A stretch of DNA of 64,000 bases from an uncultured Verrucomicrobiae bacterium (GCA_963788655.1 CAWBHS010000022.1:138463-202462), one strand, 5' to 3'; positions 4,119-63,998 are shown, numbered from the stretch's first letter. A program made the numbers and translations. The notes: generated by a model not told the origin, from the sequence alone.

Positions 4119-4129
4119 GATTTTGACCA

Positions 4130-4269
4130 GGAGCGCGCCCGCCTCGGGCGCTGTCAACGGCGCCTCGCCGTTGACTCCGCCCGCCAACGCCAGCCACCGA
4201 TCAGAAGCACGGTTCCATCCGCGGCCGGCGCGAGGCGCATCGACCGACAGGCGAGGCGCCTGTGCTCCC
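4130..4269. repeat. REPIN-like inverted pair, family B (GGAGCGCGCCCGCCTCGGGCG)
   Basis: Same motif at 35329, 41281-41321 (reverse) and 56120-56267. Confidence 0.75.
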
Positions 4270-4388
4270 TTTCAGAAACGCCACCATCCACACTTGTCGG
4301 CTTCAATGGAGACGCCGCAGAAAACCGAAATGTCCGCTTGCTTGCACCCATTCACGGCCTTACTGTCGCCTATTAGAAAACACATAGG

Positions 4389-5765
4389 ATGAAGCGTATG
4401 ACCCGAAAATGGCAGATTCCCCGACGGACCTTCCTGCGCGGCCTGGGCGCGACGATGGCGTTGCCCGCGCTCGAAGCCATGGTCGCCCCAATCGACTTGC
4501 TGGCCAAGAACACCAACCACACCCACAATGGCAGCCATCCGTTGCGCCTGGCGTTCGTGTATGTGCCCAATGGCGCGAACATGGCCGACTGGAAACCGAA
4601 AACGGAAGGCACCGATTTCGAATTGCCCTACATCCTCGAGCCGCTGAAACCGGTGCGGAACGAAGTGCAGGTGCTGACCGGACTGGCGCAGGACAAGGCG
4701 TTTCCGAACGGGGACGGCGCCGGAGACCACGCCCGGGCCAGCGCCACGTTCCTGACTGGCTGCCAGGCCCGCAAGACGGCCGGCGCGGACATTCACGTGG
4801 GCATCTCCGTCGATCAAGTCGCCGCGCAGCGGTTGGGCCGGTTGACACGGTTGCCGTCGTTGGAGTTGAGCACCGACCAGGCGCGGCAGGCCGGCGCCTG
4901 CGATTCGGGTTACAGTTGCGCCTATCAGTTCAACATTTCCTGGAGCGGCGAGAGCACGCCCTTGCCGCCCGAGGCCAATCCGCGACTGGTCTTCGAACGG
5001 TTGTTCGGCAACGATCGCCCGGCGGAAATGACCGAGAGCCGCGCCCGCCGGGAACACTATCGCCAAAGCATATTGGACCTGGTGCAGGAAGACGCCCGGC
5101 AGTTGAAGGCCCAACTGGGCCGCACGGACCAGCGCAAACTGGATGAATATCTTACCTCCGTTCGTGAATTGGAACGGCGCGTGGAACAAGCGGAGCAATT
5201 CACTGCCTCCTTGCCGAACGCCACCAAGCCTGCGGGCATCCCCCGCGAATACGAACGGCACCTCGAGCTGATGTTTGACCTACTGGCGCTGGGATTTCAA
5301 ACCGACACCACGCGCATTGCGTCATTCATGATGGCGCACGACGGCAGTAACAAGCCCTATCCGTTCATTGGCGTCTCTGAGGGGCACCACGACCTTTCCC
5401 ACCACCAGAACAAGGAGGAGAAGAAACACAAGATTGCCCGGATCAATCATTTTCACCTCACCCAGTTCGCCCGGTTTCTGACCAAACTCAAAAGCATTCC
5501 GGAAGGCAACGGCACGCTGCTGGACCATTGCATGATCGTTTACGGCAGCGGCCTGTCCGACGGTAATCGGCACAATCACGACGACCTGCCCGTCCTCGTG
5601 GCCGGTGGCGGCGCCGGCACCTTAACGCCCGGCCGGCACGTGAAGTTCAGCAAGACGCCGATGAACAATCTTTACCTGGCTCTGCTCGAACGGATGGGCG
5701 TCCCGACGCAACAATTGGGCGACAGCACTGGAATCTTGCGGGGTATTGGTCCGGAGCTGAGCTGA
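4389..5765 (+). CDS. DUF1552-family (HXXSHH) protein
   Basis: Tat-like RRTFLRG, HHDLSHH motif, standard partner of DUF1592. Confidence 0.9.
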   Translation: MKRMTRKWQIPRRTFLRGLGATMALPALEAMVAPIDLLAKNTNHTHNGSHPLRLAFVYVPNGANMADWKPKTEGTDFELPYILEPLKPVRNEVQVLTGLAQDKAFPNGDGAGDHARASATFLTGCQARKTAGADIHVGISVDQVAAQRLGRLTRLPSLELSTDQARQAGACDSGYSCAYQFNISWSGESTPLPPEANPRLVFERLFGNDRPAEMTESRARREHYRQSILDLVQEDARQLKAQLGRTDQRKLDEYLTSVRELERRVEQAEQFTASLPNATKPAGIPREYERHLELMFDLLALGFQTDTTRIASFMMAHDGSNKPYPFIGVSEGHHDLSHHQNKEEKKHKIARINHFHLTQFARFLTKLKSIPEGNGTLLDHCMIVYGSGLSDGNRHNHDDLPVLVAGGGAGTLTPGRHVKFSKTPMNNLYLALLERMGVPTQQLGDSTGILRGIGPELS

Positions 5766-36747: not shown

Positions 36748-39382
36748 ATGGCTCGGAAGGACTCCGGAAACCGCGCTCATCCTCGTGGCATGAGCGATAT
36801 TATCGGCATCGTGCTGATCGCCCTGGCATTATTGCTTTTGGTGGCGCAACTGTCATTTGACCGTTACGACCTCGAAGCGAACCGTGTGCCGGTGAATCAG
36901 GCCGTGCACAATTGGATCGGCAGCGCCGGCGCGTTGGGCGCCAACCTGCTGTTCCAATTCTTTGGCGCCGCCGCATTTGTGCTGCCCTTGCTGCTGCTGC
37001 TGTTTGGCATCGGCTACCTGTTTGAATTCTTCGCCTACTTGAAACGCCGCTGGTTCTGGGCGGCGGTGTTGCTGTTCTGTTCCCTGGGATTCTTTGACCT
37101 GTATTCGCACTTGCTGGAAGGGTTGCGCTACAATTTGAACGCGCCCAGCGCCGGCGGTTACATCGGCAAGGCGATGAACGATTGGGTGTTTGGCCGATTT
37201 GGCAAGCCCGGCGCCACCATCATTTATGGCACGCTCTACTTGATCAGCGTCATTTACCTGACCAACTTCCACCTCGGCGACTGGCTTCGAAGTTTGTTCC
37301 ATCGGGAAACGAAACTGCCGGGCGAAGAACACTGGACGCCGGAGGAAAAAGTCCTTGCCCGCCGCGCCCGGGATTTGCAACGGAAGGCCTTGAAGTTGCA
37401 GGAAGAAATGGAGCGTTCAGGGTTGGGCGCGGATCTCCAACCCGTGCCGGTGCCCACCGTGCGCGATCTGAGCGTGCCCCAGCCGCGTTCCGATCGGAAA
37501 TCGCGCGCGAAAACTCCCGAACCTGATTCCGAAACAGACGGGGTTGAAGGGGAAATAATCCCCGCCGGCGAAGTCCGGGCCGCCTCGACCAAGGACATTC
37601 TGGGCGACCACGCAAAAACCAAACCGGACGCTCACGAAACCAGCCCGGAAACCGAGCCCGAGGCCGAGCCCGCCGCGGCCGAATCCAAACCCACGCCGGC
37701 GGTGCCGATCAAGATCACCGACCAATCGATGGGCCGGCGCAGGCCGAAGAAGCCCAAGCCGATCACCGTCGCCGCGCACGCCGATGATCGGCAACTACCA
37801 GTTGCCGCCGATGGATTTCTTTCAATACCCGGACCAGAACGTCAAACCGACCGAGTCCAAGGAGGAATTGATGGCCAACGCGCGGCTGATGCAGCAGACG
37901 CTGGCGCAGTTCGGCATCGAAGTTGCCCTGGGCGACATCACCAAAGGCCCGACGATCACCCGCTACGAATTGCATCCCGGCGCCGGGCGTGAAGCTGGAA
38001 AAGATCACCGCGCTGAGCAACAACATCGCCGCCGCGCTCAAGGCCGAGCGCATTCACATCCTCGCGCCGGTGCCCGGCAAGAGTTCGGTCGGCATCGAGG
38101 TGCCCAACGCCGTCAAGACCAAGGTCATCATGCGCGACCTGCTCGAGTCGGACGAATGGCGCAACACCAAGGCCCGCATTCCGCTGGCGCTGGGCAAGGA
38201 CGTCTACGGCCATCCGATCATCGCCGACCTCGCGGACATGCCGCACCTGCTGATTGCCGGCAGCACCGGCTCCGGCAAGTCGGTTTGCATCAATTCCATC
38301 ATCGCCTCGCTGCTCTACCGGTTCTCCGCCCGACCAACTCCGGTTCGTGATGATTGATCCGAAGGTCGTCGAGCTTGCAGCAATACAACCCCCTGCCGCA
38401 CCTGGTCGTGCCGGTCGTCACCGATCCCAAGAAAGTCATTCTCGCGCTGCGCTGGGTGGTGAACGAGATGGAGAAGCGCTACCAGATCTTCGCGCGAGTC
38501 GGCGTGCGCAACATCAAATCGTTCAACGACCGCCCGAAGAACAAACCCGCTGCCGCAGACCGGAACCGGAACTGCCGCTGACGCGCCAAGAAGGAAAAAG
38601 TGCGAACCCGGCGCCGAAGGCTTCGCGGTGGAAGTGGACGAGGAAATCGTCGTGCCGCGCGAGGAAGACATCGTCATTCCCGAGAAGCTCAGCTACATCG
38701 TGGTCATCATCGACGAGCTGGCCGACCTGATGCTCGTGGCGCCGGCGGACGTCGAAATGGCCATCGCGCGCATCACGCAGATGGCGCGCGCGGCCGGCAT
38801 CCATTGCATCGTCGCCACCCAGCGGCCGAGCGTGGACGTCATCACCGGCGTCATCAAGGCCAACATCCCGGCGCGCATCGCGTTCCAGGTGGCCGCCACG
38901 GTGGATTCGCGCACCATTCTCGATGCGATGGGCGCCGACAAACTGCTGGGCAAGGGCGACATGCTTTACCTGCCGCCGGGCTCGGCCAAGCTGATCCGCG
39001 CGCAGGGCGCGCTCGATCACCGACCAGGAAATCCAGAAGCATCGTGGACTTCATCGCCAAGCAGGGCAAGCCCAGCTACGAGATGGAAATCCACCAGCAA
39101 CTCTCCAAGCCGGCGCACGAGCTTCGAGAACGAGAGCGGCATCGACGAGGACGAGGACCTGATCCAGCAGTGCATCGAAGTCATTCGCAGCGAGCAAAAG
39201 GCCAGCGTCTCGCTGATGCAGCGCCGCTGCGCCTCGGCTACACCCGCGCCGCGCGCATCATGGATGAACTGGAGAACCGCGGCATTGTCGGCCCCAGCAA
39301 AGGCGCCGAGCCGCGCGACATCCTCATTGACCTCGACGGCACCGGCGCCGACGGCCTGCCTGCCAGCCAATCGCCGGCCTGA
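36748..39382 (+). pseudogene. ftsK: DNA translocase FtsK, many frameshifts in the 3' half (probably sequence errors)
   Basis: 4TM N-terminus; [43 protein letters not shown] and gamma domain spread over at least 7 ORF fragments. Confidence 0.9.
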
Positions 39383-39715
39383 CGAGGGCGCTATCCGGTT
39401 TTGGGTGCTCACAACTGGTACGGGCCGTGGGATCTCACACCGCTGCCGCCAAGATGGCCTTGACCGAGTGGAAGGAAAAGCACGCCCAAAACAGGAGAGA
39501 TATCGCATTCTTCCAATCTGCGAACCATTGGCCATGGATGGGCGATCTGAACAGGCGCGAGTATTGCAGCGAAGCTCAGGTGGAATTCTCATGGGTTGAC
39601 GCCGCGCTGCCATTTGACGTAATCTGTTGACGTGAATGGGATTACCGATGGAGTTTCAATGGTTCACTATACGAACCGATGGTTCGTTGAATAATTGTAG
39701 GCTCGGAGAGTACGC

Positions 39716-40030
39716 ATGCTCATAGTCTTCTCCATTACGGTCGTCGTTTTGCCCGCGCTCCTCACCGTTGCAGCGTGCGCATTCGCGGAGCGGCAGCATC
39801 GCAAAGCTGCTTGGTACGTGGCGTTATTCGCCTGCATTGTGACTGGCTTTATTGGCGCCATTTTGATTTTTCAGGGAGACGTATTTTATTTAGATTCTTG
39901 GCTGGACAACGGCAAAGGTTCGCCAGTTCGGAATTGCTTCTTGATAGGGAGTGGGGTCGGCTTGCTCCCTGGATTGTTCGTTGTCCGATTTTACCGTGAG
40001 AGATTCAAGGGCCATAAAAAACTTGCCTAA
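39716..40030 (+). CDS. hypothetical membrane protein (gene cassette 1)
   Basis: Three hydrophobic segments; stop codon lies in the R'' box GCCTAAC. Confidence 0.7.
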   Translation: MLIVFSITVVVLPALLTVAACAFAERQHRKAAWYVALFACIVTGFIGAILIFQGDVFYLDSWLDNGKGSPVRNCFLIGSGVGLLPGLFVVRFYRERFKGHKKLA

Positions 40031-40120
40031 CAAATCGAGTCACCGAATGACCGGCAAGCACGTCAGTTTTGAATTTGGAAGGCACCGGGATGCCGCTCAT
40101 CGGCGCTCTCCGCGTTAGCC
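40025..40120 (+). mobile_element. integron attC site 1
   Basis: GCCTAAC ... GTTAGCC; inner arms GAG(T)CACCG(A)ATGA / TCATCGGCGCTC with two unpaired bases. Confidence 0.8.
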
Positions 40121-40136
40121 TGCATCGCACACGCCT

Positions 40137-40481
40137 ATGAACAAGATTGCGCCCATACTCGGAGAATCGCTGGCGGCTACACTCGTCATCGTCCTTTGTC
40201 TCTCGCTTCCCTCTTTCTTGGGCTTGCCTTTGTGGTCGCTGCCCTTGTTCGGCGTTCCGGCGATGCTTTATTTGGACTGGCGGCTCGGAGAGCGCCACTG
40301 GGCGCGCTGGAAGATTGTGCGCTGGGTGGTGGGCATGAGTTTGATCATGTTCCTTTGGTCTCGGTTTTCGCCGACGGACTACGGCTGGTGGATTGTGCTG
40401 TTGCTGCTGATCATCTTCCCGCCGAGTTCATGGCTGTTTTGGCGGAAGACGAAGAGAGAGGATTCACACCATGCAGGCTAA
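40137..40481 (+). CDS. hypothetical membrane protein (gene cassette 2)
   Basis: About four TM segments; starts 16 nt after attC1; stop codon inside GGCTAAC. Confidence 0.7.
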   Translation: MNKIAPILGESLAATLVIVLCLSLPSFLGLPLWSLPLFGVPAMLYLDWRLGERHWARWKIVRWVVGMSLIMFLWSRFSPTDYGWWIVLLLLIIFPPSSWLFWRKTKREDSHHAG

Positions 40482-40598
40482 CGAAGAGCGCTGCAGCGAA
40501 CCGCCGCCCCGCTTTGCAGTCGGGCGGTTCGGATAATTTGTCATCGATTGTTGCAGCCGACCGGGCGTTTCCGGCGCCGGTCGCTGAGTTCGTTGGCC
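40476..40598 (+). mobile_element. integron attC site 2
   Basis: GGCTAAC ... GTTGGCC; arms CT(G)CAGCG(A)ACCG / CGGTCGCTGAG with two unpaired bases. Confidence 0.8.
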
Positions 40599-40674
40599 TG
40601 CTCCGGGCGGAACCCTGCTGTCCCTTCTCTTTTACGCATCTTGACCCCCAACCTGGAAGAAACAGGCTTTGTGC

Positions 40675-40881
40675 ATGAGACAAGTATTGATCCATGCGGG
40701 TGAAGACGGTTACTGGGTTGCCGAGTGTCCGAGCTTGCCGGGCTGCGTGTCCCAAGGGACCACCCGCGAAGAAGCAATCCGCAACATCAAAGAGGCCATC
40801 GAGGGGTATGTCCTGGTGCTCAAGGAGGATGGACCTCCAGTGCCTGAGGACAAACTGGATGCACTTTTTTTGGCGGTATGA
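40675..40881 (+). CDS. hicB: HicB family antitoxin (short form)
   Basis: EDGYWVAECPSLPGCVSQG.T.EEA..NIKEAI. Confidence 0.9.
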   Translation: MRQVLIHAGEDGYWVAECPSLPGCVSQGTTREEAIRNIKEAIEGYVLVLKEDGPPVPEDKLDALFLAV

Positions 40882-41100
40882 GCACGCTGCCGCGTGTTTC
40901 AGGGCAGCAGGTGGTCGCGGCGCTGCCGAGCATAAGGCTTCCGGGTTCGCCGCCAACATGGAAGCCACATCATCATGCGGCGGGATGATCCCTTCGCCCA
41001 GACAGTAGTGCCCGCGCACCGCGAACTGGATCGGGGAATGTTGAGAGCCATTCTCCGTCAGATCGAAATAAGTGTGGAAGAGTTTGTTCGCTTACTTTGA
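40878..41100 (+). CDS. hicA: HicA family toxin, frameshift near 40935
   Basis: MSTLPRVSGQQVVAAL, then after a shift GF...RQHGSHIIM...VVPAHRELDRGMLRAIL; ATGA overlap with hicB. Confidence 0.8.
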
Positions 41101-41177
41101 AATCTGGCCAACCAGGGCGATGGAACGTTGCGGCTTGTGGCTTTCACGAACTCAATCGCGGCAATTGCAGTGAAAAG

Positions 41178-41321
41178 GAGAGCACGCACACCCAGAGCGA
41201 TGATAATCCGAGACTGCGCCGGTTGGCCCGCGACTGGAGCGTCACGTAACAGCGAGTGAAACCAATGCTCGAAAACTTGTGGGCGAGGCGCCAACCGTAG
41301 CGCCTGAGGCGGGCGCGCTCC
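41178..41321. repeat. REPIN, family B (left arm degenerate)
   Basis: GCCGGTTGGCCC.CGACTG and GGCGAGGCGCCAACC...GGCGGGCGCGCTCC match 56120-56267. Confidence 0.7.
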
Positions 41322-41327
41322 GCAGGC

Positions 41328-42071
41328 TTAGTCCGACGGACCGGCATATCTTTGGCGCGCGGCTTCGAGGGACTGCGGGGTGCCGATGTCCAGAATCGTC
41401 CCCTGGATTCGATGGGCATAGACCGGCTCCCGCTGAAACAGCCATTCGATGAAATGGCCGGGCGCCTCCGCGGAACCGCCCTGGGCCAGGTACTCGGATA
41501 CGCGCGGCAATGTGCGTTGGGGAAACAGGTAAATCGGCGGCACGGCCAATTGGGTTTTTGGCTCACGCGGCTTCTCAGCGAATTCCAAGACGCGGTTGCG
41601 CTCGTCCAGCACGACCACTCCCGTGCGCCGAAGCCGTTCCGTGTCCGAGACAACGTGGACACACAGATGGCTGGTGGGGCAGGCACGAAAAGCGGAGGCC
41701 AATTCCATCAGCGGAAACTCGAGGATATTGTCCGCGGCCGTGACCAACAAATCGTCGTCAATCCTCGCCTGTCGCACGGCAAATTGTAGATCGCCGATGG
41801 CGCCGAGCCGGTCCTCGTTGCTGGTGGTGCCGTCATCGATGAGCGTGATTTTCCGGGTGCCAACCCACCGCCGCCGCCAAGCTTCAAAGTGCGGCAAGAA
41901 CCGGTGGTTGGTGATAAGAAAGACGTGATCGAGGGCGGGGATCGTTTCCAGTTGGCCCATCAAATGATCCAGGATGGTTTGTCCGCCCGCCTCGAGCAAC
42001 GGCTTGGGAAAGTCCTTCGTCAACGGGTATAGCCTCGTCGCATAACCGGCTGCGAGAATAAGCGCTTTCAT
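41328..42071 (-). CDS. sugar-phosphate nucleotidyltransferase
   Basis: MKALILAAGYATRLYPLT...PKPLL, DIGT; ATGA overlap with the kinase stop. Confidence 0.92.
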   Translation of the reverse strand: MKALILAAGYATRLYPLTKDFPKPLLEAGGQTILDHLMGQLETIPALDHVFLITNHRFLPHFEAWRRRWVGTRKITLIDDGTTSNEDRLGAIGDLQFAVRQARIDDDLLVTAADNILEFPLMELASAFRACPTSHLCVHVVSDTERLRRTGVVVLDERNRVLEFAEKPREPKTQLAVPPIYLFPQRTLPRVSEYLAQGGSAEAPGHFIEWLFQREPVYAHRIQGTILDIGTPQSLEAARQRYAGPSD

Positions 42072-43447
42072 AAGCGTCGCGCTCCATCCGCCGATTGGCA
42101 CAGAAGAAAGCGGGCCCGCGCCGCGAGCTGGGGCTGGCGCCGGGCGTAGGCCGCTTGCAGTTCCGGCAGCGCGTGTCGGGCGGCGTCCGGTTCGGCCAAG
42201 GCCACGCAACACCCCCGAAAACCGGCCCCGCTAAATCGCGCACCGTAAATGCCCGGCGTATGGACCAGTAAGTTGTAAAGATCGAGCAAGGGCTGACTGC
42301 CACATTCGTAATTGTCGATCGAACTCTGCCCCGACTCGGTCATCAACTTTCCAAACCGGATCCAATCGCCCCCGCGCCAGGCGTCAATCCCGTCGTGAAC
42401 ACGCTGCATTTCCGTGAAGAAATGTTGGGCGCGCCGGGCCGGGGCGCCGCTCAGGCGTGAACGGTGCGCGGCGTATTCCTCAGGCCGCACGTTGCCCAGA
42501 TAAGCGGATTCATCGGTGCGCCCGACGGCGTCGAGCAGAATCCGGGCAGCCGCAGCACATTCGGCAACGCGCTGGTTGTAGTCGGTGGCAATGACGGCCT
42601 GGGTCAATCCGGAAACCGCCAGCAAAATAGTAAACGGCGGCGCCTGGCCTTTCTCAATCCAACGGATGCCACGGTTGTCGCGCGACGCGAGGTCATCAGT
42701 TTCATTCGTTGGCGCCTCTGAACGTGTTTTGAACGTCTGTAAACCGGTAGCCACCGACGTAAGGAGGTGGATCTGTTGGTCGCTTGGCGTTGGCGAATTC
42801 GCCTCCTCATGTTGGCGGTTACCCTTTTGAAACGCGCTCTCAGCGAATGCGTGGCAATTGATCACTGTGAGTTGGTCGTGTCTGGACAGCAGGATGGCGG
42901 ATTGATCCAGGATACCGTTCTTCAGACCGAGATACTCGTTTTCGACGGCTTGGTCCAAAACGATGTTATGCGCCGCGGACACTTCAAGCTGATTGAGATC
43001 TTCCAGCGCCAGCAGGTACGCCACGCCAACGCTTGCCGAAGAACTTAGCCCAACCTCGGGCAATCCACCGCTGGTGACACCGACCATGCCCTGCCTCAGT
43101 CGATTCCCGCGGCTCAGTACCTTGATCGCACCGCGCGCATAATCTCCCCAATCGCCGAGCGGAGCGGTGGGGACGTGCGCGAGGGGAATGGTGATTTCGT
43201 TGGAATACGCCAGGCTGCTCAGTCGCACTTCGTCGGAACCGGACGGGGCGTAAGCGAGATATGTCCCTCGATCGATGGCCATCGCGGTGACGGTTCCCAA
43301 TTGATGATCGATGTGCGCACCCAACGGGCAAATCCGATACGGCGACCAGACCACCCGAACCAGTGCCGGCGCGATGCCGTATCGGTCGTGCATCGCCTGG
43401 CGAAGCTGGCTCAAAGTGTCCGGTTGATCCATCGCGCTGTCTCTCAT
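42068..43447 (-). CDS. GHMP sugar kinase, galacturonokinase-like
   Basis: SPYRICPLGAHIDHQ, GLSSSA, GL.NGILDQ, NYECG, GARFSGAGFRGC. Confidence 0.85.
   Translation of the reverse strand: MRDSAMDQPDTLSQLRQAMHDRYGIAPALVRVVWSPYRICPLGAHIDHQLGTVTAMAIDRGTYLAYAPSGSDEVRLSSLAYSNEITIPLAHVPTAPLGDWGDYARGAIKVLSRGNRLRQGMVGVTSGGLPEVGLSSSASVGVAYLLALEDLNQLEVSAAHNIVLDQAVENEYLGLKNGILDQSAILLSRHDQLTVINCHAFAESAFQKGNRQHEEANSPTPSDQQIHLLTSVATGLQTFKTRSEAPTNETDDLASRDNRGIRWIEKGQAPPFTILLAVSGLTQAVIATDYNQRVAECAAAARILLDAVGRTDESAYLGNVRPEEYAAHRSRLSGAPARRAQHFFTEMQRVHDGIDAWRGGDWIRFGKLMTESGQSSIDNYECGSQPLLDLYNLLVHTPGIYGARFSGAGFRGCCVALAEPDAARHALPELQAAYARRQPQLAARARFLLCQSADGARRL
42747..42822. repeat. REPIN, family E, inside the kinase gene
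   Basis: GTAGCCACCGACGTAAGGAGGTG and inverted arm CGCCTCCTCATGTTGGCGGTTAC. Confidence 0.7.
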
Positions 43448-44382
43448 TTCCGCCGCCGCATGTCCACGTAAACCGCGCCCAGGATCACGCCGCCCTTGAC
43501 GATGTATTGCAGCGAATAATGGACGCCGGCCTGGTTTAAACCCTTGTCCAGAATGCCAATGATGATGGCCCCCAGCAACGTGCCGTAAATCGTGCCGCGC
43601 CCGCCGGTGAAACTGGTGCCGCCCACCACCGCCGCGGCAATGGCGTGCAATTCGAACATCACTCCGGAGGCCGGCTCAGCGGAATACAACTGCGAGGCGT
43701 TGATCATGCCGGCCACGCCGGTCAGCAGCGAGCAAATCACATAGACCAGGATTTCAATGCGGGCGACGGGAATGCCCGTGAATCGCGCGGCTTCGCGGTT
43801 GCCGCCGATGGCATACAGGTGTTGCCCGAACCGCGTCCGGTGCAGGAGCACAGCCGTCAAGGCAAACAGGCCAAGCATCACCACCACCGGCACGGGTATC
43901 ACTCCGAATAACCGGCCATTGCCCAATGCCAGGAACACCGCCTGGCTATCGGGAATGTGCATGGGCCGGCCCTCGTTGTACCGCAACGCGGCCCCGCGCG
44001 CGATCAGCATGGTGGCCAGCGTGATGATGAAGGGTGGCATGGGGGTCCTCGCGGCGCACACGCCGTTCATCAACCCCAGCAATGCGGCCACTGCCAATCC
44101 CGCCGGCACGGCCAGCCACAGGCCGAGCCCCGTGAGACCGGTCGTCAGGAAATAGACAGTTGACGTGCCCACCAACGCCAGCAATGCCCCCACCGATAAG
44201 TCAATTCCCCCGCTCAGAATCACCAACGTCATGCCGTACGCCAGGATGGCGTTGATCGAGATTTGTTGGGCCAGGTCCAGCAAATTGATGGGATGCAGGA
44301 AATTGGGCACCCACAGCCGGAACAGTCCCAGCAGTACCGCCACTGCAATCAGCAGCGGCAACATTCGTTTATACGTTCTCAT
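43444..44382 (-). CDS. monosaccharide ABC transporter permease (RbsC-like)
   Basis: GGIDLSVG, PPFIITL, GGN.EAA...GI, IAAAVVGGTSF.GG.G. Confidence 0.95.
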   Translation of the reverse strand: MRTYKRMLPLLIAVAVLLGLFRLWVPNFLHPINLLDLAQQISINAILAYGMTLVILSGGIDLSVGALLALVGTSTVYFLTTGLTGLGLWLAVPAGLAVAALLGLMNGVCAARTPMPPFIITLATMLIARGAALRYNEGRPMHIPDSQAVFLALGNGRLFGVIPVPVVVMLGLFALTAVLLHRTRFGQHLYAIGGNREAARFTGIPVARIEILVYVICSLLTGVAGMINASQLYSAEPASGVMFELHAIAAAVVGGTSFTGGRGTIYGTLLGAIIIGILDKGLNQAGVHYSLQYIVKGGVILGAVYVDMRRRK

Positions 44383-45903
44383 CCAGGGATGCTCCGGTCA
44401 GTTGTTCCATGACGCGTTCGGGCGTGTACTCAGTCGCCTTGCCCAGCTTGAGGATTCGGCCTTCCCGATAAACGGCGATCCGATGTGACAAGTTCAGGAC
44501 TTCGTTCAAATCCGAAGAAATCAGAATTACCGCGATCCCCGACGCCACCAGTTTGGCGATGAAGGAAAAGATTTCTTCCCGCGCGCCAACATCGACGCCG
44601 CGCGTGGGTTCATCGAGAATCAGCACACGTGGCGGATGTTCCATCCAACGGCCGACCAAAACTTTTTGCTGGTTGCCGCCCGAGAGGCTGTCCACCGGTT
44701 GCTCGGGATCGGCCAACCGAATGGCAAAATTCCGCACCGCCCGGTCCACGATGGCGGCGCGTCTTTTGTGATTCGGCGTGCCAGCCGGCGATCCAGTCCC
44801 GCACCCAGGGCAAAGCGATGTTAAAGGCCACCGACTGGCAGACGACCAGGCCCTGCAGTTTTCGGTCCTCCGGGATCAAGACGATGCCGGCCTGCAACGC
44901 CTCCGCCGGCGAGGCAATCTTGACGGCCTTGTCCTGATCGCAGGATTTCGCCGCTCTCCAAGCGGTCGATGCCGAAAATGGCCCGGGCCAATTCGCTGCG
45001 TCCGGACCCGACCAAGCCGGCAAAGCCAAGAATTTCCCCGGCGCGCAATTGGAAACTGACGTTGCGCACTTTTGCATTGGTCAGGTTCTTCACCTCCAGA
45101 ACGATGTCTCCCGAAGCCCCGGCGGGGCGATGGAAATGGTCGGCGATTTCGCGTCCCACCATCCAGCGTACGAGCTCCTGTTGGTGCAATTGGCTGGTCG
45201 GTTGGGTGCCGATGGATTCCCCATCCCGCAATACCGTGATGCGGTTAGCCAGGCGGATGATTTCTTCGAGGCGGTGCGAGATGTAAATGATGCCCACGCC
45301 CTGTTCTCGCAACCGTGAAAGCGTGGCGAACAGGATTTCGGTCTCCGTCTCGGACAGCGAGGACGTGGGTTCGTCCAGCACGAGAATGCGCGCCTGGCAG
45401 GACAATGCCCGAGCAATTTCGACCAGTTGCTGGTGAGCCACGCTCAGGGTGGAGACGTCGGCCCGCACATCGCGGATTTCGGTCAGGCCGAGCCGATTGA
45501 CCAGTTGGCCGGCCTCCGCAAATATTTGACGCCGATCCAGAAACCCAAAGCGTCCCGGTTCGCGACCCAGATAAATGTTTTCCGCCACGGAGAGATTCGG
45601 GGCCAGGGACAATTCCTGGTGAATGATGCGGATGCCGTAGCGGTCCGCATCGCCGACGCCGTAAATGGACGCCGGTTGGCCATTGATAACGATCGCACCT
45701 GCGTCGGGCCGATGAATGCCGCCGAGCACTTTGATGAGGGTGGACTTGCCGGCGCCGTTCTCACCGAGCAATGCGTGGATTTCCCCAGCCTGCAACTCGA
45801 AGTCCACGCCCTTCAGAGCCTGCACACCGCCGAAGTATTTTTTGACGCCCCGCAAGCGGAGCAGAGTGTCGGGTGCCGTTCGAGTGCAGTCGAATTGGGG
45901 CAT
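44369..45903 (-). CDS. monosaccharide ABC transporter ATP-binding protein (RbsA-like), frameshifts near 44940 and 44770; start uncertain, frame open up to 46815
   Basis: GENGAGKST, LDEPT, PEDRK, LSGGNQQK, DEPTRGVDVGA across three ORF fragments. Confidence 0.88.
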
Positions 45904-45968
45904 GCTGATTGGTGGTCTAGGATTGGCCATCAGCAATCGTGCTCCCGGCAGCAAATGGAGCACTGGAA

Positions 45969-46453
45969 CGTGCTGCCGGCATCCTGCCGGCAGAGCGAAC
46001 GGAGCAAGCCAAGGCGAAGGGTATTGTTTGAGTTCGAGCGCACCTTTCGTGATCCGTTTCTGCCGGCGGGACGCCGGCAGCACGTTGCTCCAGCGTGCTG
46101 CCGGCATCTTGCCGGCAGGTCGGACGGCGCCAGCCCAATCGAAGGGTATTGTTTGGTTCGAGCGCACCCTTCGTGATCGTTTCTGCCGGCGGGACGCCGG
46201 CAGCACGTTGCTCCAGCGTGCTGCCGGCATCTTGCCGGCAGGTCGGACGGAGCCAGCCCAATTGAAGGGTATTGTTTGGTTCGAGCGCACCCTTCGTGAT
46301 CGTTTCTGCCGGCGAGACGCCAGCAGCACGTTGCTCCAGCGTGCTGCCGGCATCTTGCCGGCAGAGCGAACGGCGCCAGCCCAATCGAAGGGTATTGTTT
46401 GGTTCGAGCGCACCCTTCGTGATTGTTTCTGCCGGCGGGACGCCCGCAGCACG
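45969..46453. repeat. tandem array of four ~123-bp REPIN units (family G)
   Basis: Units start at 45969, 46094, 46217 and 46340; each CGTGCTGCCGGCATCYTGCCGGCAG ... CTGCCGGCGRGACGCCRGCAGCACG with near-identical interiors. Confidence 0.95.
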
Positions 46454-46577
46454 TCGCCCCAGCGAATGGAGCAAACCATATCCAAAGTTAATACTCGGTC
46501 GTTCGCATACACCGACTCGGTCCCTGCCAAGTTCCGTAAAGTATTACCGTGCGCAACGCACTGCAGGTCGTCGATCC

Positions 46578-46728
46578 TCGCGAAGCGTTTGGAGTGCGTG
46601 GAGCTTGCTCCCGCTTTTGGTTTGGTACGACAAAACAACTTGCTGCCGTGCCGCGCGAGAAAAACTCGACCCTTGCGGTTTCGTTCGAAAGCGCCGGCAA
46701 GCCGGGCGCACTCCAAACGCTGGCGCGA
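46578..46728. repeat. REPIN, family F (GCGTTTGGAGTGCG)
   Basis: Inverted arms 46578-46617 and 46688-46728; related copy at 59143-59294. Confidence 0.85.
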
Positions 46729-46811
46729 CTTAGCTTCCGCGGTTGCAATATCGGCGCCAGCCACGTGTCGGAATGTAACAAACCAACTTCTGCCCGTTTT
46801 CCCATCGCAGC

Positions 46812-47762
46812 TCATTGCTTGAGGAATTCGTCGGCATTCGTTGCAGTGATCAGTTTGACGGGCACCTTGACGTTTTTGGGAATCGTTTTGCCGGCCAGGT
46901 GCCCATAAAATTTCTCGGCGGCGATGCGCCCAATTTCCTTCGGGAATTGGGCCGAGGTCGAATACAGCTTGCCGGCCTTGATGGCCGCGATGCCTTCCTG
47001 CGAACCATCGACCGTCACCACGGTAACGTCCTTCAGCTTGCCCGCCGATTCCAAGGCGGAGATGGCTCCCAATGCACTGGGATCGTTGATCGGAAACACG
47101 GCATCAAGGTCGGGAAACCGGCCCAACAAATCCCGCATGACCGGCCGCGCGCCTTCAGTGGTGCCTTTGCCTTCCTGGATGTCCTGGATCTTGAGTCCGG
47201 GATGCTTGGCAGCTTCCTCCTTGAATCCGGCGACGCGGTCAATGCATGCTTTGTTCACGGACAAGTGCAGGATCACCACTTTGGCGTTCGGCTTGACGGT
47301 GGCCAGCGCCCGCGCGGCTAATCGACCCGCCTCGAGATTGTCGGAAGCCACCTGGCACAGCACGAGATCTTCCTCCTTAACTGGCGCGTCCACAATGATG
47401 CACGGTACGTGCTGGTTCTTCGCCTGGAGCAACGTGCCTTTAATGCCTTCCCAGTTCACCGGGTTGATAAACACGGCGGCGGCGCCTTGCATGATCACGT
47501 CGGAAATGTCGTTCTTCTGTTTGAGACTGTTGAATTGCGCATCGAGGGTGACCAACCGATCACCGTGGGCCTCGACCACTTCCTTGAGCCCCTGGTTCAA
47601 GTCGATGAAGAACGGATTATTCATCGTCTGGTATGACACCGCCAGGAGACGACTTTGGGTTTTCGTGTCGCTGGAAGCGGCAGAATTGGTTTCCGTTTTG
47701 CCGCAACCGAAAGCAAGAGCCAGCAGACCCATGGCGGCGAAGTTTAGAATGTTGTGCTTCAT
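46812..47762 (-). CDS. sugar ABC transporter substrate-binding lipoprotein (RbsB-like)
   Basis: Lipobox LAFG-C, NNPFF, SDN..AG, ND..ALGA, VDG. Confidence 0.93.
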   Translation of the reverse strand: MKHNILNFAAMGLLALAFGCGKTETNSAASSDTKTQSRLLAVSYQTMNNPFFIDLNQGLKEVVEAHGDRLVTLDAQFNSLKQKNDISDVIMQGAAAVFINPVNWEGIKGTLLQAKNQHVPCIIVDAPVKEEDLVLCQVASDNLEAGRLAARALATVKPNAKVVILHLSVNKACIDRVAGFKEEAAKHPGLKIQDIQEGKGTTEGARPVMRDLLGRFPDLDAVFPINDPSALGAISALESAGKLKDVTVVTVDGSQEGIAAIKAGKLYSTSAQFPKEIGRIAAEKFYGHLAGKTIPKNVKVPVKLITATNADEFLKQ

Positions 47763-47817
47763 TGGTTGGTTATCTCACCGTGCTTTCTCCGTTGTTTCAA
47801 TCGGAAACCGTGGTTTC

Positions 47818-47933
47818 GTAGGACAGGCGTCCCGCCTGTCCCGGACTTTCCGACAACTCTGAATTGTTGCGAGATGTTTGCTGGCGCAAGGTGCGGTTCT
47901 GGTCATTCGGGACAGCCGGGACGGCTATCCTAC
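47818..47933. repeat. REPIN, family A
   Basis: GTAGGACAGGCGTCCCGCCTGTC ... GACAGCCGGGACGGCTATCCTAC. Confidence 0.85.
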
Positions 47934-47946
47934 TCGCCCTCGGCGC

Positions 47947-49068
47947 TCAGTTCTCAGCTTCCAGTATCGGCTCCAGCAGCCGCAGAAACGCCCGCGCCTG
48001 GCGCATGAATCCCAGGTCGGTCGGGTGCGATCCGTCCACGGTGTCCTCCCCATCGCGGCCCAGCAGCAGTTCACCGGGCAGGTAGTAGAGTCCTTTCACG
48101 CCGTTGGCTTCGAGACGTCCAAAGGCGGCTTTCAACGCCACGCGGTCCTCGAGGTTGCGTTGCGCGCGAGCCGGTTTGAAAAACGCGTCACCATAAGTCC
48201 GGTCTTCGACCAACAAGATCGGCGTGTCAGGATGCGCCGCACGCAATCGCTGCACAAACGGTTCGACCCGTTCCGTCACCATCGCGCCGTCCATATTGGG
48301 CAAGCAATCGAGGATGAAGACCGCCGGATCCAATTCCGCCAGCAGATCGGCCAGGGGCATTTCCATTTTGCCATTGCCCGAAAAACCCAGGTTGATGACG
48401 GGTCGGTTCAAGGCCCGTCCCACAATAGCGGTATGCACCATTCCCGGACGACTGGCGCAGCCGCCTTGAGTAATCGAGGTGCCATAAAACACCAGGGGAC
48501 GCCGATAGCCGGGCGGCCGCGCCGGGGCTTTGGACATGGTGGCGTCGGACGGGATGCCAAGCTCGACTTGCGAAACGCCGTTATACAGCGGGAGGTAAAG
48601 CCAGAATTCCCGCGGCTCGCGGGCGACACCCTCGAATAACCGAACGGTGTTCGTTTGGCCGGTGGGTTTGCCATTGGCCACCCAACGCCACGAACCATCC
48701 GGTTGATGTACGTAAAGATCGACGCCGCTGACGCCGGTGGCTGGCATGTGCGTCATGGCCAGGTTCTTCGAAGTCAACACCCAGTGGGCCGTCAACTCAG
48801 GCGTATCCGTCACAAACCGCGCGCTCAACCCAGCGCTGTGATGACTCAAACTCCACACAGCGGGAGGGACATTGGTGGCGGCTTTGCTGGGCAGCCGGTC
48901 GTACGGTCCCGGTGTGTCGGTCCAGCCTTTGCCTTCGAGGTCCAGCAAGGTCAAATCGTAATAACGAAGTTTCCCGTCCTGTCTGGCCTTTTCCACCGGC
49001 AACGGTTCGGCAGCCGGAAGTTGGGCGACGACGAAAAGAACGGTGACGAACAAGATCAGCTTGTGCAT
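47947..49068 (-). CDS. SGNH/GDSL hydrolase with GxDLY N-terminal domain (putative carbohydrate esterase)
   Basis: Signal peptide, SGVDLY, YGTSITQG, NLGFSGNG, DGSHP. Confidence 0.9.
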   Translation of the reverse strand: MHKLILFVTVLFVVAQLPAAEPLPVEKARQDGKLRYYDLTLLDLEGKGWTDTPGPYDRLPSKAATNVPPAVWSLSHHSAGLSARFVTDTPELTAHWVLTSKNLAMTHMPATGVSGVDLYVHQPDGSWRWVANGKPTGQTNTVRLFEGVAREPREFWLYLPLYNGVSQVELGIPSDATMSKAPARPPGYRRPLVFYGTSITQGGCASRPGMVHTAIVGRALNRPVINLGFSGNGKMEMPLADLLAELDPAVFILDCLPNMDGAMVTERVEPFVQRLRAAHPDTPILLVEDRTYGDAFFKPARAQRNLEDRVALKAAFGRLEANGVKGLYYLPGELLLGRDGEDTVDGSHPTDLGFMRQARAFLRLLEPILEAEN

Positions 49069-49130
49069 GGCGCGAATTTACGAACATACCGGCGCGCGCG
49101 GAAGGCTATTCTTGCCAGCATGACGCCATG

Positions 49131-49238
49131 GGAAATCCGAAGGCCGAAACCCGAGATCCGAATTGATCTGGCTCGGCGGAGACGTTTTCCGCGTTCCCTC
49201 GCAATAGGAACTCCATCGGCTTCGGTCTTCGGATTTCC
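49131..49238. repeat. 18-bp inverted repeat pair built from short TTCGGAT-like units
   Basis: GGAAATCCGAAGGCCGAA / TTCGGTCTTCGGATTTCC, 17 of 18 match. Confidence 0.7.
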
Positions 49239-49322
49239 TTTCGCTTGCGCTGGCCGCTTGCTCACCATACCATCCCGCCTCCTTTGAATTGAAATTGGTT
49301 TATTGAGCAAAAGTTACGAAAT

Positions 49323-50543
49323 ATGGCTAGTTTGAAAGGCAAAGCTTTAGTGGCGCAGGGTGGTGGTCCGACCGCGGTGATCAATCAATCGATGGTGGGC
49401 GTGGTCCTCGAAGCGCGGCGTTATGCGCAGGTAACCGGGGTGTATGGCGCGCTGAATGGCGTCAGCGGTATTCTCAAGGAAGAATTCGCCGACCTCAGTC
49501 AAGAGACGCTGAACAATCTCGAACACGTGGCCAGCACGCCGTCATCGGCCCTGCTGAGCACGCGCGACAAGCCGGACGCGGAATATTGCGCCAAGATTTT
49601 CAAAGTCCTGAAAGCGCACGACGTCCGTTATTTCTTTTACATCGGTGGCAACGACAGTTCCGACACTGTGCGAATCGTCAACGAGCACGCGCACCAGGAC
49701 GGGTATGAGATGCGCTGTGTCCACATTCCCAAAACCATTGACAACGACTTGGTCGAGAACGATCACACTCCCGGCTATCCGTCCGCCGCGCGCTTTGTAG
49801 CCCAAGCCTTCATGGGGGCCAACCTCGACAATCGCTCACTGCCGGGCGTTTATTTGGGCATCGTCATGGGACGGCACGCCGGCTTTTTGACCGCCGCCAG
49901 CGCGTTGGGACGCACGTACCCGGACGATGGTCCGCATCTCATTTATGTGCCGGAACGGCCGTTTGATACCGATCAATTCGTGGCGGATGTCGATGCCACC
50001 TACCAGAAATATGGCCGTTGCATTATCGCCGCGAGCGAAGGCGTGACCGATGCCAAGGGAACGCCGATCATAACCAAGCTCATGGAGAACGTGGAAAAGG
50101 ATGCCCACGGCAACGTGCAGCTCTCGGGCACCGGCGCGCTGGGCGATTTGCTGGCCGAAGAAGTGAAAAAGAAGCTGAAGATCAAGCGCGTGCGGGCGGA
50201 CACGCTGGGCTATCTCCAACGCAGCTTCATGGGCGTGGTTTCCGACGTGGACCAAAGCGAAGCGCGCGAAGTCGGCGAGCGCGCCGTACACTTCGCCGTG
50301 ACGAAGGACGTGGACGGTTCGGTGGCCATCAAGCGCACTGGCAATTATTCGGTGGATTACGAATTGGTCGAGCTCACGAAAATCGCCGGCAAGACCCGTC
50401 ACATGCCCACCGAGTTCATCAACGAAAAAGGCAACGACGTCACCGACGCTTTCGTGACTTACGCTCGGCCGTTGCTCGGCAGTGATCTGCCGCGGCCCTA
50501 CATCATCCGGGCGCCACGCGTGGCCAAAGTGTTGAACCAGTAG
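49323..50543 (+). CDS. pfkA: 6-phosphofructokinase, probably pyrophosphate-dependent
   Basis: GGPTAVIN, GGNDS (Asp at the donor-specificity position), PKTIDND, MGR. Confidence 0.9.
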   Translation: MASLKGKALVAQGGGPTAVINQSMVGVVLEARRYAQVTGVYGALNGVSGILKEEFADLSQETLNNLEHVASTPSSALLSTRDKPDAEYCAKIFKVLKAHDVRYFFYIGGNDSSDTVRIVNEHAHQDGYEMRCVHIPKTIDNDLVENDHTPGYPSAARFVAQAFMGANLDNRSLPGVYLGIVMGRHAGFLTAASALGRTYPDDGPHLIYVPERPFDTDQFVADVDATYQKYGRCIIAASEGVTDAKGTPIITKLMENVEKDAHGNVQLSGTGALGDLLAEEVKKKLKIKRVRADTLGYLQRSFMGVVSDVDQSEAREVGERAVHFAVTKDVDGSVAIKRTGNYSVDYELVELTKIAGKTRHMPTEFINEKGNDVTDAFVTYARPLLGSDLPRPYIIRAPRVAKVLNQ

Positions 50544-62973: not shown

Positions 62974-63998
62974 ACGGGTCAGTCCTCACTTTTGACACTC
63001 AAGTCCTCCTTCATTGGCGACTATTCCGATCGCAGCAGATTCGACACGTGCGTCCACACCCCCATCTGCAGGCGCCGCGCGATCCAAGCCAGCGTCATGG
63101 TCGTCTCCTGCCGCAACCGCCGGGCGATGCGCACCTTGCCGGGGTCGCCCTTGCGCCGCTGCGCCAGGTCCGCTTCCGTCCAACGCCGCTTGGCCAACTC
63201 CGCCCGCACCAACCGCTCTGCCTTCGCCTCGCCACTCTCCTGCCTTTCCGCCCCGTAATGCTGCGCTCCCACCCGCTCCGAGGCGTGGGCCAGCAACTCC
63301 TCCTTCAACGTATCCGCGCCGAAGAACCACCCCCGCTGGATTGCCGCCCACTCCTCGCCCCCGCCCTCCGGTTGCCGCCGCGTCTCCATCTGCCGCTCGA
63401 ATTCCCGCCGCCCCGCCGCACTGTCCTTGGGCAACCGCATCTCCCCGAACAACCGCTCCACCCGCAGCCACGGCCAACGGCGCCCCGGCGGCTTCAGATA
63501 TTCCGGGAAACTGCTCCACGCGTATTCCCGCAGCGGTTGCTCCGGCGCCAGCAACTTCGCCCGTACCGGATTCAGATGCACATACTCGCCGACCGTGCGG
63601 AAGTAGCCCGGCGATGCCGCATCCACCACCAACGCCTTGTAGCGCCCGCTGAACAAATGTCCAAATAGCTTGTGCCGCCGGTTGAACCGCGCCGTATAGG
63701 TGCCCATAAACCACTTCATGCCCGCGACCAGGTTCCCCTTGGGCGTTTCGACCAGCAGATGAAAATGATTCCCCATCAGGCACAGGGCGTGAACCCGCCA
63801 ATCGGTCTTGGTGCAAGCCTCGCCCAGCGTCTCGAGGAACCGGTTCCGATCCGCGTCATCCCGGAAGATGGGTTCGCGCCGGTCGCCGCGATTCAGGACG
63901 TGATAAATCGCCCCTTCGTATTCAATGCGCAACGGTCGTGGCATGGCGGGAAACTGCCCGAAAACAAGCCGCTGTGTCAATAGTGAGGACTGACCCGT
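62974..63998 (-). mobile_element. Y1 transposase element bounded by 25-bp inverted repeats
   Basis: ACGGGTCAGTCCTCACTTTTGACAC (62974-62998) and GTGTCAATAGTGAGGACTGACCCGT (63974-63998), 24 of 25 match. Confidence 0.8.
63021..63944 (-). CDS. RAYT-like / IS200-superfamily Y1 HUH transposase with C-terminal HTH
   Basis: YHV.NRG..R..IF, NHFHLL (HUH), YVHLNPVRA (catalytic Tyr), WSS, IARRL HTH. Confidence 0.92.
   Translation of the reverse strand: MPRPLRIEYEGAIYHVLNRGDRREPIFRDDADRNRFLETLGEACTKTDWRVHALCLMGNHFHLLVETPKGNLVAGMKWFMGTYTARFNRRHKLFGHLFSGRYKALVVDAASPGYFRTVGEYVHLNPVRAKLLAPEQPLREYAWSSFPEYLKPPGRRWPWLRVERLFGEMRLPKDSAAGRREFERQMETRRQPEGGGEEWAAIQRGWFFGADTLKEELLAHASERVGAQHYGAERQESGEAKAERLVRAELAKRRWTEADLAQRRKGDPGKVRIARRLRQETTMTLAWIARRLQMGVWTHVSNLLRSE

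Follow-up and report, generated by a model that had tools for sequence, protein, structure and literature searches.

A galacturonokinase-type kinase paired with a nucleotidyltransferase in a Verrucomicrobiae genome: a candidate bacterial counterpart of plant galacturonate salvage

Bacteria are known to process galacturonate, the main pectin sugar, either by an isomerase route (Uxa) or by an oxidative route (Udh), and they obtain UDP-galacturonic acid (UDP-GalA) by epimerisation of UDP-glucuronic acid (UDP-GlcA). Salvage by an anomeric kinase together with a nucleotidyltransferase is exemplified by the FKP-type L-fucokinase/GDP-fucose pyrophosphorylase and by the AmgK–MurU pair. In plants, in the account given in PMC8636097, galacturonokinase (GalAK) makes galacturonic acid 1-phosphate (GalA-1-P) and the pyrophosphorylase Sloppy then makes UDP-GalA; Arabidopsis has one GalAK gene, At3g10700. 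GalAK is described as unrelated in sequence to glucuronokinase (as stated in PMC2823444). This work deals with a locus of an uncultured Verrucomicrobiae bacterium, of soil or water type, in which a GalAK-type kinase gene is followed by a sugar-1-phosphate nucleotidyltransferase gene and preceded by genes for an esterase and an ATP-binding cassette (ABC) importer. The locus occupies positions 41328-49068 of the window, which here means the whole stretch of DNA analysed (64,000 nt; GCA_963788655.1 CAWBHS010000022.1:138463-202462). An earlier note on this DNA had proposed that the six genes import galacturonate, or a related sugar, and activate it directly to an NDP-sugar. The coupling of the kinase to a sugar-1-phosphate nucleotidyltransferase agrees with the second half of this proposal, whereas the importer proved not to be a conserved partner.

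The reading preferred here, to which a probability of roughly 0.55 is given, is that the kinase and the transferase form a two-step module for salvage of galacturonic acid (GalA), a bacterial counterpart of the plant route, with the importer plausibly supplying the substrate in this genome. The kinase would phosphorylate free D-galacturonic acid at C1 with ATP, yielding GalA-1-P, and the transferase would join GalA-1-P to a nucleoside triphosphate; with UTP, the most likely one, the product would be UDP-GalA. This product could then enter envelope or exopolysaccharide synthesis, or the pool of UDP-GlcA and UDP-xylose. In the genome under study the module would stand behind a translationally coupled importer of ribose type (class CUT2) with an altered binding pocket, a plausible supplier of the substrate; this step is lineage-specific and the least certain of the scheme.

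The family of the kinase is the best supported part of the scheme. An exhaustive phmmer search against 1.84 billion cluster representatives returned 349 clusters at E<=1e-30, the second of which is a protein of the streptophyte alga Spirogloea muscicola (P0121, E 7e-105, 48% identity) and the third a protein of Camellia sinensis named 'Galacturonokinase' (P0122, E 9e-99, 53% identity). Name look-ups revealed other eukaryotes in the same list, namely Mesotaenium (P0174), Closterium (P0215), Tetracentron (P0133), Wolffia (P0258), and Micromonas (P0193). The best 120 relatives of the Camellia protein are from angiosperms and many are named galacturonokinase or galacturonic acid kinase; the characterised Arabidopsis GalAK is absent from these 120. 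A search of 5.8 billion proteins gave 2970 matches, the best of them 43-66% identical and coming from metagenome-assembled genomes labelled Verrucomicrobia, Latescibacteria, Sumerlaeia/BRC1, and Gemmatimonadota. All five NCBIfam equivalog models for galactokinase (GalK) are missed (bits against cut-off: 175.2/385, 170.6/226.65, 156.2/443, 154.2/499, and 128/509). The architecture is that of a GHMP kinase with an N-terminal sugar-binding signature of GalK type, as shown by three Pfam domains and an AlphaFold2 (AF2) model of pTM 0.85, and human GALK1 ranks first among the solved relatives (E 3e-34). The four kinase motifs quoted by the earlier note are present, at residues 35, 169, 379, and 402. 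A single-protein scan of genome contigs added one locus (L001, 32% identical), which was not used further.

Phylogeny leads to the same result. In a careful IQ-TREE analysis of 51 rows, comprising 49 GalAK-like sequences (eight of them plant or algal) and two GalK-type ones (P0256 and a paralogue on contig C109 of the same genome), the GalAK-like family is separated from the GalK-type rows with 100/100 support; the same split has an SH-aLRT of 99 in a quick tree of 106 rows. The window kinase pairs with that of a genome of the same genus, G001 (97/80), inside a Verrucomicrobiota clade (99/93) which itself lies within a clade including Sumerlaeota and Latescibacteria rows (99/97). A streptophyte clade, which takes in two unnamed rows (86/91), joins this bacterial clade in a 32-row subgroup (88/90). 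In the quick tree the bacterial and streptophyte clades are sisters (SH-aLRT 85), a sisterhood that the careful tree does not resolve. Search rank, tree, and missed GalK cut-offs thus bear out the claim that the kinase belongs with plant GalAK rather than with GalK, and it is very probably a member of the GalAK family. The phylogenetic comparison suggested by the earlier note was made against GalK; the Arabidopsis GalAK was not among the sequences retrieved.

As a separate observation, streptophyte GalAK (land plants, Spirogloea, Mesotaenium, and Closterium) is nested within an otherwise environmental or bacterial family, with Micromonas placed elsewhere in the tree. Such nesting may be the trace of an ancient gene transfer between the plant lineage and bacteria.

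The second line of evidence is the recurrence of the kinase with a transferase. Seventy-nine metagenome loci with an alignment to the kinase family were retrieved, with flanks of up to 9 kb, and 64 of them have at least 500 bp downstream of the kinase. In 24 of these 64 loci the kinase gene is immediately followed, on the same strand, by an NTP_transferase gene; upstream of the kinase such a gene occurs in none of them, and elsewhere in the flanks it was found at one locus only (L086, two weak matches). The pair is also present in all three Verrucomicrobiota genomes that have the kinase: the genome under study, G001, and a third one, G404. The kinase-linked transferases occur in two forms, a short one like that of the window and a longer one with a tail of hexapeptide repeats. 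The conserved unit is the kinase–transferase pair. Operon conservation, one of the checks that had been proposed, therefore gave a divided answer: the pair recurs, but homologues of the esterase, the binding protein, and the permease are found near the kinase in none of the 79 loci (E<1e-8), and four of these loci have generic ABC ATPase matches only, 4-7 kb from the kinase. The link of the pair to the importer and the esterase is consequently specific to this genome.

Several protein sequences in which a kinase of this type seems to be fused to another domain, P0225 (kinase and transferase), P0260 (kinase and UDP-glucose dehydrogenase), P0263 (DctM and kinase), P0239, and P0154, were rejected as Rosetta-stone evidence. 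Each of them has a truncated kinase (P0225 lacks the kinase C-terminus) and gives the impression of a gene call that is merged or chimeric; among the kinase matches there was no convincing fusion with a full-length GalAK-type kinase. In P0263 the partner of the truncated GalAK-like kinase is a TRAP DctM permease, and in P0260 it is a UDP-glucose dehydrogenase. These two merges, likely artefacts, hint at uronate-related neighbours in other organisms.

With regard to the transferase, PF00483 covers residues 2-242 of its 247, and the N-terminal loop G-x-G/A-T-R-L-x-P-x-T is visible in the translation. Its Pfam matches at E<=0.001 are confined to PF00483, PF12804, and PF01128; at this threshold it does not match the UDPGP-family fold of the plant UDP-sugar pyrophosphorylase (USP) or 'Sloppy' enzyme, a family which we take to be PF01704. 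The protein falls far below every NCBIfam equivalog cut-off; with the best model, that of the UDP-glucose pyrophosphorylase AglF, it obtains 76 bits where 400 are required, and these models thus define neither its nucleotide nor its sugar. Among long proteins, the transferase has 86 relatives (35-46% identity, in the range P0407-P0473). An SDR epimerase domain is fused in 47 of the 86, two of which are named UDP-glucuronate 4-epimerase by JGI; UDP-glucose 6-dehydrogenase (UGDH) domains are fused in two (P0430 reaches 318.9 bits against the TIGR03026 cut-off of 189.8), and GHMP kinase domains in one (P0470, a long branch in the transferase tree). The SDR part of P0417 has 5u4q as its best match, followed by the 6zl6/6zla series, which is titled 'Epimerase domain-containing protein' and presumably represents the Bacillus cereus UDP-GlcA 4-epimerase. 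We know of no description of a bifunctional transferase–SDR or transferase–UGDH architecture. These fusions point to a chemistry of UDP-hexoses or UDP-uronates in the transferase family at large, without specificity for GalA-1-P. A quick tree of transferases unites the kinase-linked ones of window type in a clade of their own (11 rows, SH-aLRT 99) and the epimerase- or UGDH-fused ones in a separate clade (27 rows, SH-aLRT 99) to which four other kinase-linked rows are nearer; because the fused clade is separate, the support holds at the family level only. A paralogue of the transferase in the same genome (C59:93669-94403, 37% identity, E 2e-54) falls outside the kinase-linked clade.

The residues of the kinase bear on its substrate. 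Among the positions that we take to be the sugar contacts of human GALK1, R37, H44, D46, D186, and Y236 are kept in the alignment, while E43 is replaced by alanine (Ala44); the signature is GAHIDH in the window kinase and GEHTDY in GalK. Glutamate 43 presumably contacts the C6 hydroxyl of the sugar. Alanine occupies this position in 207 of 215 family rows, and in all 27 rows of a smaller alignment, and is said to be tied to GalA specificity. The arginine of the GAGFRG motif (Arg411) is found in 165 of the 215 rows, plant rows included. D-Galacturonate is the predicted substrate, with somewhat better than even confidence.

One alternative is that the specificity has diverged from that of the plant enzyme and that the pair salvages another sugar; candidates are D-glucuronate, L-arabinose, D-galactose, and acidic sugars that occur in the polysaccharides of algae or bacteria. 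L-Arabinose has the same ring stereochemistry and no C6, and the change of the GalK glutamate to alanine would suit a sugar without a C6 hydroxyl as well. The sole characterised member of the family is the plant enzyme, Arg411 gives way to glycine in some subclades (34 of 215 rows), and the binding protein encoded upstream is ribose-like. The other neighbours of the kinase (99 of 194 listed neighbour open reading frames, ORFs, were scanned by Pfam) are also varied, including sulfatases, GH127, GH116, GHL6, and TonB receptors, with GH28 only at locus L016. On the contrary, the GAGFRGC motif and the alanine are common to the kinase's clade (Verrucomicrobiota, Sumerlaeota, and Latescibacteria) and the streptophyte clade, both of which fall in the same 32-row subgroup; the identity to plant GalAK is high, at 48-53%; and the four GH28 matches in the genome would provide a possible source of GalA. 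A different sugar is thus considered unlikely, and GalA salvage is retained as the preferred reading.

The six genes are arranged as the earlier note had described, all on the minus strand (from ORF translation and Pfam), and both of its ATGA overlaps, between permease and kinase at 43444-43447 and between kinase and transferase at 42068-42071, were verified in the DNA. The features, in the order in which the operon strand would be read, are the following:

47947-49068, minus strand: SGNH/GxDLY-type esterase, secreted, 373 aa, with an N-terminal signal-like segment (PF14606, E 1.3e-61; PF14607, E 4.2e-45)
46812-47762, minus strand: CUT2-type periplasmic sugar-binding protein (RbsB-like), 316 aa, with a lipoprotein-like N-terminus (PF13407, E 4.5e-47)
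45969-46464, no strand assigned: four tandem copies of a 123-bp repeat (Tandem Repeats Finder, TRF)
45930 or 45903 (candidate starts) to 44369, minus strand: two-domain sugar ABC ATPase, RbsA/AraG-like (PF00005)
43444-44382, minus strand: CUT2 ABC permease (RbsC-like), 312 aa (PF02653, E 6.5e-46)
42068-43447, minus strand: GalAK-type GHMP sugar-1-kinase, 459 aa, predicted D-galacturonate 1-kinase (PF10509, E 1.9e-10; PF00288, E 8.5e-10; PF08544, E 6.8e-9)
42713-42846, minus strand: palindromic element within the kinase ORF, resembling a miniature inverted-repeat transposable element (MITE) (BLASTN copies in the same genome)
41328-42071, minus strand: sugar-1-phosphate nucleotidyltransferase, 247 aa, predicted GalA-1-P uridylyltransferase (PF00483, E 1.8e-26)

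A gap of 184 bp separates the esterase gene from the binding-protein gene. The esterase, whose best solved relative is 4lhs, an 'uncharacterized protein' (E 6e-64), is co-oriented with the other five genes. A scan for promoters and terminators gave sites no more numerous than in shuffled sequences. Farther away, at 1719-5765 and 63021-63980, the window contains genes of the PSD/PSCyt (DUF1585-1595) and DUF1552 types characteristic of Planctomycetes and Verrucomicrobia, and an IS200-like Y1 transposase near its end.

The importer has the CUT2 architecture, although its components do not reach the equivalog level of RbsABC: the binding protein obtains 149.9 bits against a cut-off of 337 for RbsB, the ATPase (first frame only) 331.7 against 745 for RbsA, and the permease 265.1 against 398 for RbsC. 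The closest solved relatives of the binding protein are ribose-binding proteins (RBPs; 2ioy, E 5e-42, and the E. coli RBP, about 1e-35). Ten pocket residues of the E. coli protein are listed in Table 3 of PMC2630998. Eight of the ten are kept here, and the two exceptions are R90, which corresponds to Ala126, and F164, which corresponds to Lys199 in a stretch devoid of aromatic residues. It may be speculated that the loss of an arginine and the gain of a lysine would favour an acidic ligand of larger size. The chance that importer and kinase handle the same sugar is judged to be a little below even.

These data must be weighed against a second alternative, according to which two unrelated modules merely abut: the esterase and a CUT2 uptake system for a neutral, ribose-like sugar on one side, and the pair, acting on a substrate that this system does not import, on the other. 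The absence of binding-protein, permease, and esterase homologues at the metagenome loci favours it, as do the lack of importer or esterase homologues in the 1.7 kb available upstream of the G404 kinase and the state of affairs in G001, whose contig ends 230 bp upstream of its kinase and which has no close orthologue of the permease, the best match (45% identical) being on other contigs. The ribose binders among the closest solved proteins, and the eight conserved pocket residues, point the same way. Nonetheless, the 4-bp overlap of permease and kinase genes implies co-transcription and translational coupling, the cluster contains no ribokinase or any other sugar kinase, and the pocket substitutions and the RbsB score (150 against 337 bits) set the binding protein apart from RbsB. 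This alternative is therefore held to be rather unlikely, and an importer serving the salvage pair is kept, for this genome, as the plausible arrangement.

The spacer between the binding-protein and ATPase genes is filled with the 123-bp repeats (TRF period 123, 4.0 copies, 93% matches). One unit, folded as RNA in the sense of the operon strand, gives a hairpin of -67.2 kcal/mol (z -6.1, with none of 200 shuffles as good), and the family is abundant in the same genome, with 1055 BLAST high-scoring segment pairs and arrays at, for instance, C26:14823-15302 and C98:17734-18458. An Rfam scan of 39500-50000 gave only two sub-threshold matches to microRNA models, both on the hairpin repeats. Repetitive extragenic palindromic (REP) elements stabilise the mRNA upstream of them, and by analogy the hairpin array may act in a similar manner here.

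The integrity of the ATPase and kinase genes also needs to be discussed, since a third alternative holds that the locus is decaying, with the ATPase a pseudogene, the kinase disrupted by a mobile element, repeats invading, and nothing functional left. Three-frame translation and the DNA show two frame changes in the ATPase gene, at about 44930 and 44770. The first frame covers positions 5-318 of the 504 of the AraG model (E 2e-103) and the remainder is distributed over two other frames, with the C-terminal ABC_tran piece in an ORF at 44369-44749; in addition, the 664-aa ORF at 44821-46815 has an artificially long 5' end that runs through the repeat-bearing spacer of about 0.9 kb. It is important to note that FtsK, at 36748-39599 of the window, is also split over at least four ORFs or frames, which contain successively FtsK_4TM, FtsK_alpha with the beginning of FtsK_SpoIIIE, the remainder of FtsK_SpoIIIE, and FtsK_gamma. 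On contig C49 of the same genome, a paralogue of GalK is likewise frame-broken. Because the essential FtsK is broken in the same way as the ATPase, indel errors in the assembly (115 contigs, 86% complete, 5.6% contamination) are the favoured cause; the three broken genes suggest that such errors are frequent, and the frame breaks of the ATPase are in consequence read as a probable artefact.

The kinase, in turn, is about 57 residues above the family norm (459 aa, against some 395-410 aa in its relatives), and the excess is due to an insertion that includes a dispersed repeat. A full MITE-like copy of about 126-130 bp, in frame and without a stop codon, encodes approximately residues 201-245. 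BLASTN found 21 other matches in the same genome with 74-87% identity (e.g., C62:14210-14337, C81:29121-29251, and C72:344681-344801), matches also exist at the peptide level, and for most of the other copies the location is a short frame or the end of an ORF. The alignment of 16 copies, that of the kinase included, reveals terminal inverted repeats of about 17 bp and a long internal inverted repeat; as RNA the element folds only modestly (-42.3 kcal/mol, z -2.5). Alignment with GALK1 places the insertion between residues 214 and 223, in a hairpin loop. The AF2 model (mean pLDDT 83.9) drops below 50 only at 217-256, which is the insert, and at 1-6 and 130-135, so that the insert sits between strands E192-197 and E261-265 with the core and the flanking strands confidently modelled. 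Between the invariant Cys198 and Ser279, most family members (137 of 215) have 23 residues, with a range of 19-99; the window kinase has 80, and the G001 kinase has 52, with an unrelated Pro/Ala-rich repeat at the same site. Across the 215 relatives, this hairpin loop, which lies between the two domains of the kinase, is a hotspot where unrelated insertions accumulate. Since the loop accepts insertions across the family, the MITE probably does not inactivate the enzyme.

The frame changes, the MITE within the kinase ORF, the four tandem repeats in the spacer, and the sporadic distribution of the gene in the phylum are what could be invoked in favour of decay. All the same, the frame breaks are shared with FtsK and the C49 paralogue, the kinase ORF is open over its whole length and retains all residues that are invariant in the family, and the insert occupies a loop of variable length, between well-modelled strands, that also carries an insert in the G001 kinase. 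A decaying locus is thus regarded as very improbable, and a functional kinase–transferase pair remains the interpretation followed here.

Several further points must be counted against GalA salvage by this pair, besides the missing importer homologues, the distant G001 permease, and the ribose-binding relatives already described. The kinase is rare among relatives, occurring in one of 40 genomes in a sample of the order and in one of 400 other genomes in a sample of the phylum. Specificity is extrapolated from one characterised plant enzyme, an identity of about 50% does not have the power to fix the substrate, and the bacterial branch is not known to contain an assayed enzyme. At 40 of the 64 loci no transferase is adjacent to the kinase, and the fusions of the wider transferase family would suit a glucose-1-phosphate uridylyltransferase equally well. 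Finally, the broken ATPase frame and the 57-residue insertion would be consistent with a loss of function in this particular genome.

The rest of the genome was considered for other routes. UxaC was not found in it (at 86% completeness), and it has one gene of the altronate/galactarate-dehydratase family together with the four GH28 matches. At least five nucleotide-sugar dehydrogenase matches lie above cut-off, and stand-alone homologues of the fused epimerase are present (best 43% identity). The organism may thus plausibly make UDP-uronates de novo, in which case the pair would serve as a salvage route alongside that synthesis. As a side observation, an 887-aa ORF at C60:263098-265761 has, by eye, an FKP-like layout, with an N-terminal NTP_transferase-like part and a C-terminal GHMP sugar kinase; this fusion could represent a further salvage system of the anomeric-kinase kind in the organism.

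As regards novelty, the earlier note held that such a system had not been characterised in bacteria. No study of a bacterial GalAK was found in the literature searched, most subscription journals being outside its cover, but the novelty was overstated, because automatic JGI naming already assigns galacturonokinase to 31 of the 120 homologues listed (and galactokinase to 4). A broader proposal can be advanced only tentatively, namely that bacteria of the Verrucomicrobiota, Sumerlaeota, Latescibacteria, and further phyla turn scavenged GalA directly into UDP-GalA by means of a GalAK-type kinase and a dedicated short uridylyltransferase, and that streptophyte GalAK shares this origin, probably having been acquired from the bacterial family given that its clade is nested among environmental and bacterial sequences. 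If true, the pair would give the main pectin sugar a third fate in bacteria, an anabolic shortcut around the two uronate routes known from them, and carbon flow as well as the synthesis of envelope glycans would have to be read differently in bacteria that degrade polysaccharides. The pair would in addition offer a compact two-enzyme tool for UDP-GalA and bear on the origin of the plant salvage enzyme. The pair is readily testable, both proteins being small, soluble, and widespread.

Compared with the known systems, the importer resembles RbsABC in its three-component architecture, in its closest sequence models, and in most of the RBP pocket. It differs from it in the missed equivalog cut-offs, the changes at R90 and F164, the order binding protein–ATPase–permease, the repeat-filled spacer, and the gene that follows, which is not a ribokinase but a GalAK-type kinase. 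The kinase shares with GalK of the Leloir pathway (EC 2.7.1.6) the fold and all but one of the catalytic and sugar-contact residues; the five missed cut-offs, the replacement of the GEHTDY glutamate by alanine, the fully supported split in the tree (100/100), and the lack of a GalT or GalE partner in the cluster separate the two. With FKP and AmgK–MurU the locus has in common that a kinase and a nucleotidyltransferase are encoded together, although those systems involve other kinase subfamilies and sugars, and here the two activities lie in separate genes. The closest likeness is to the plant GalAK of the At3g10700 type, which belongs to the same GHMP subfamily, with 48-53% identity to streptophyte members and shared PYRICPLGAHxD, NYECG, and GARFSGAGFRGC motifs. 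The likeness extends to the order of reactions, in which a sugar-1-kinase acts first and a pyrophosphorylase then produces an NDP-sugar, as outlined for GalAK and Sloppy/USP in the account of PMC8636097. In contrast to the plant route, the second enzyme is a short RmlA/GalU-like PF00483 transferase encoded beside the kinase and not a broad-range USP, the host is bacterial (of Verrucomicrobiota type), an ABC importer is coupled to the pair in this genome, the kinase carries a MITE-derived loop, and the system is known here from its sequence. What would be new, then, is the salvage logic of plants operating in bacteria with a different, dedicated pyrophosphorylase family, joined in this genome to an ABC importer.

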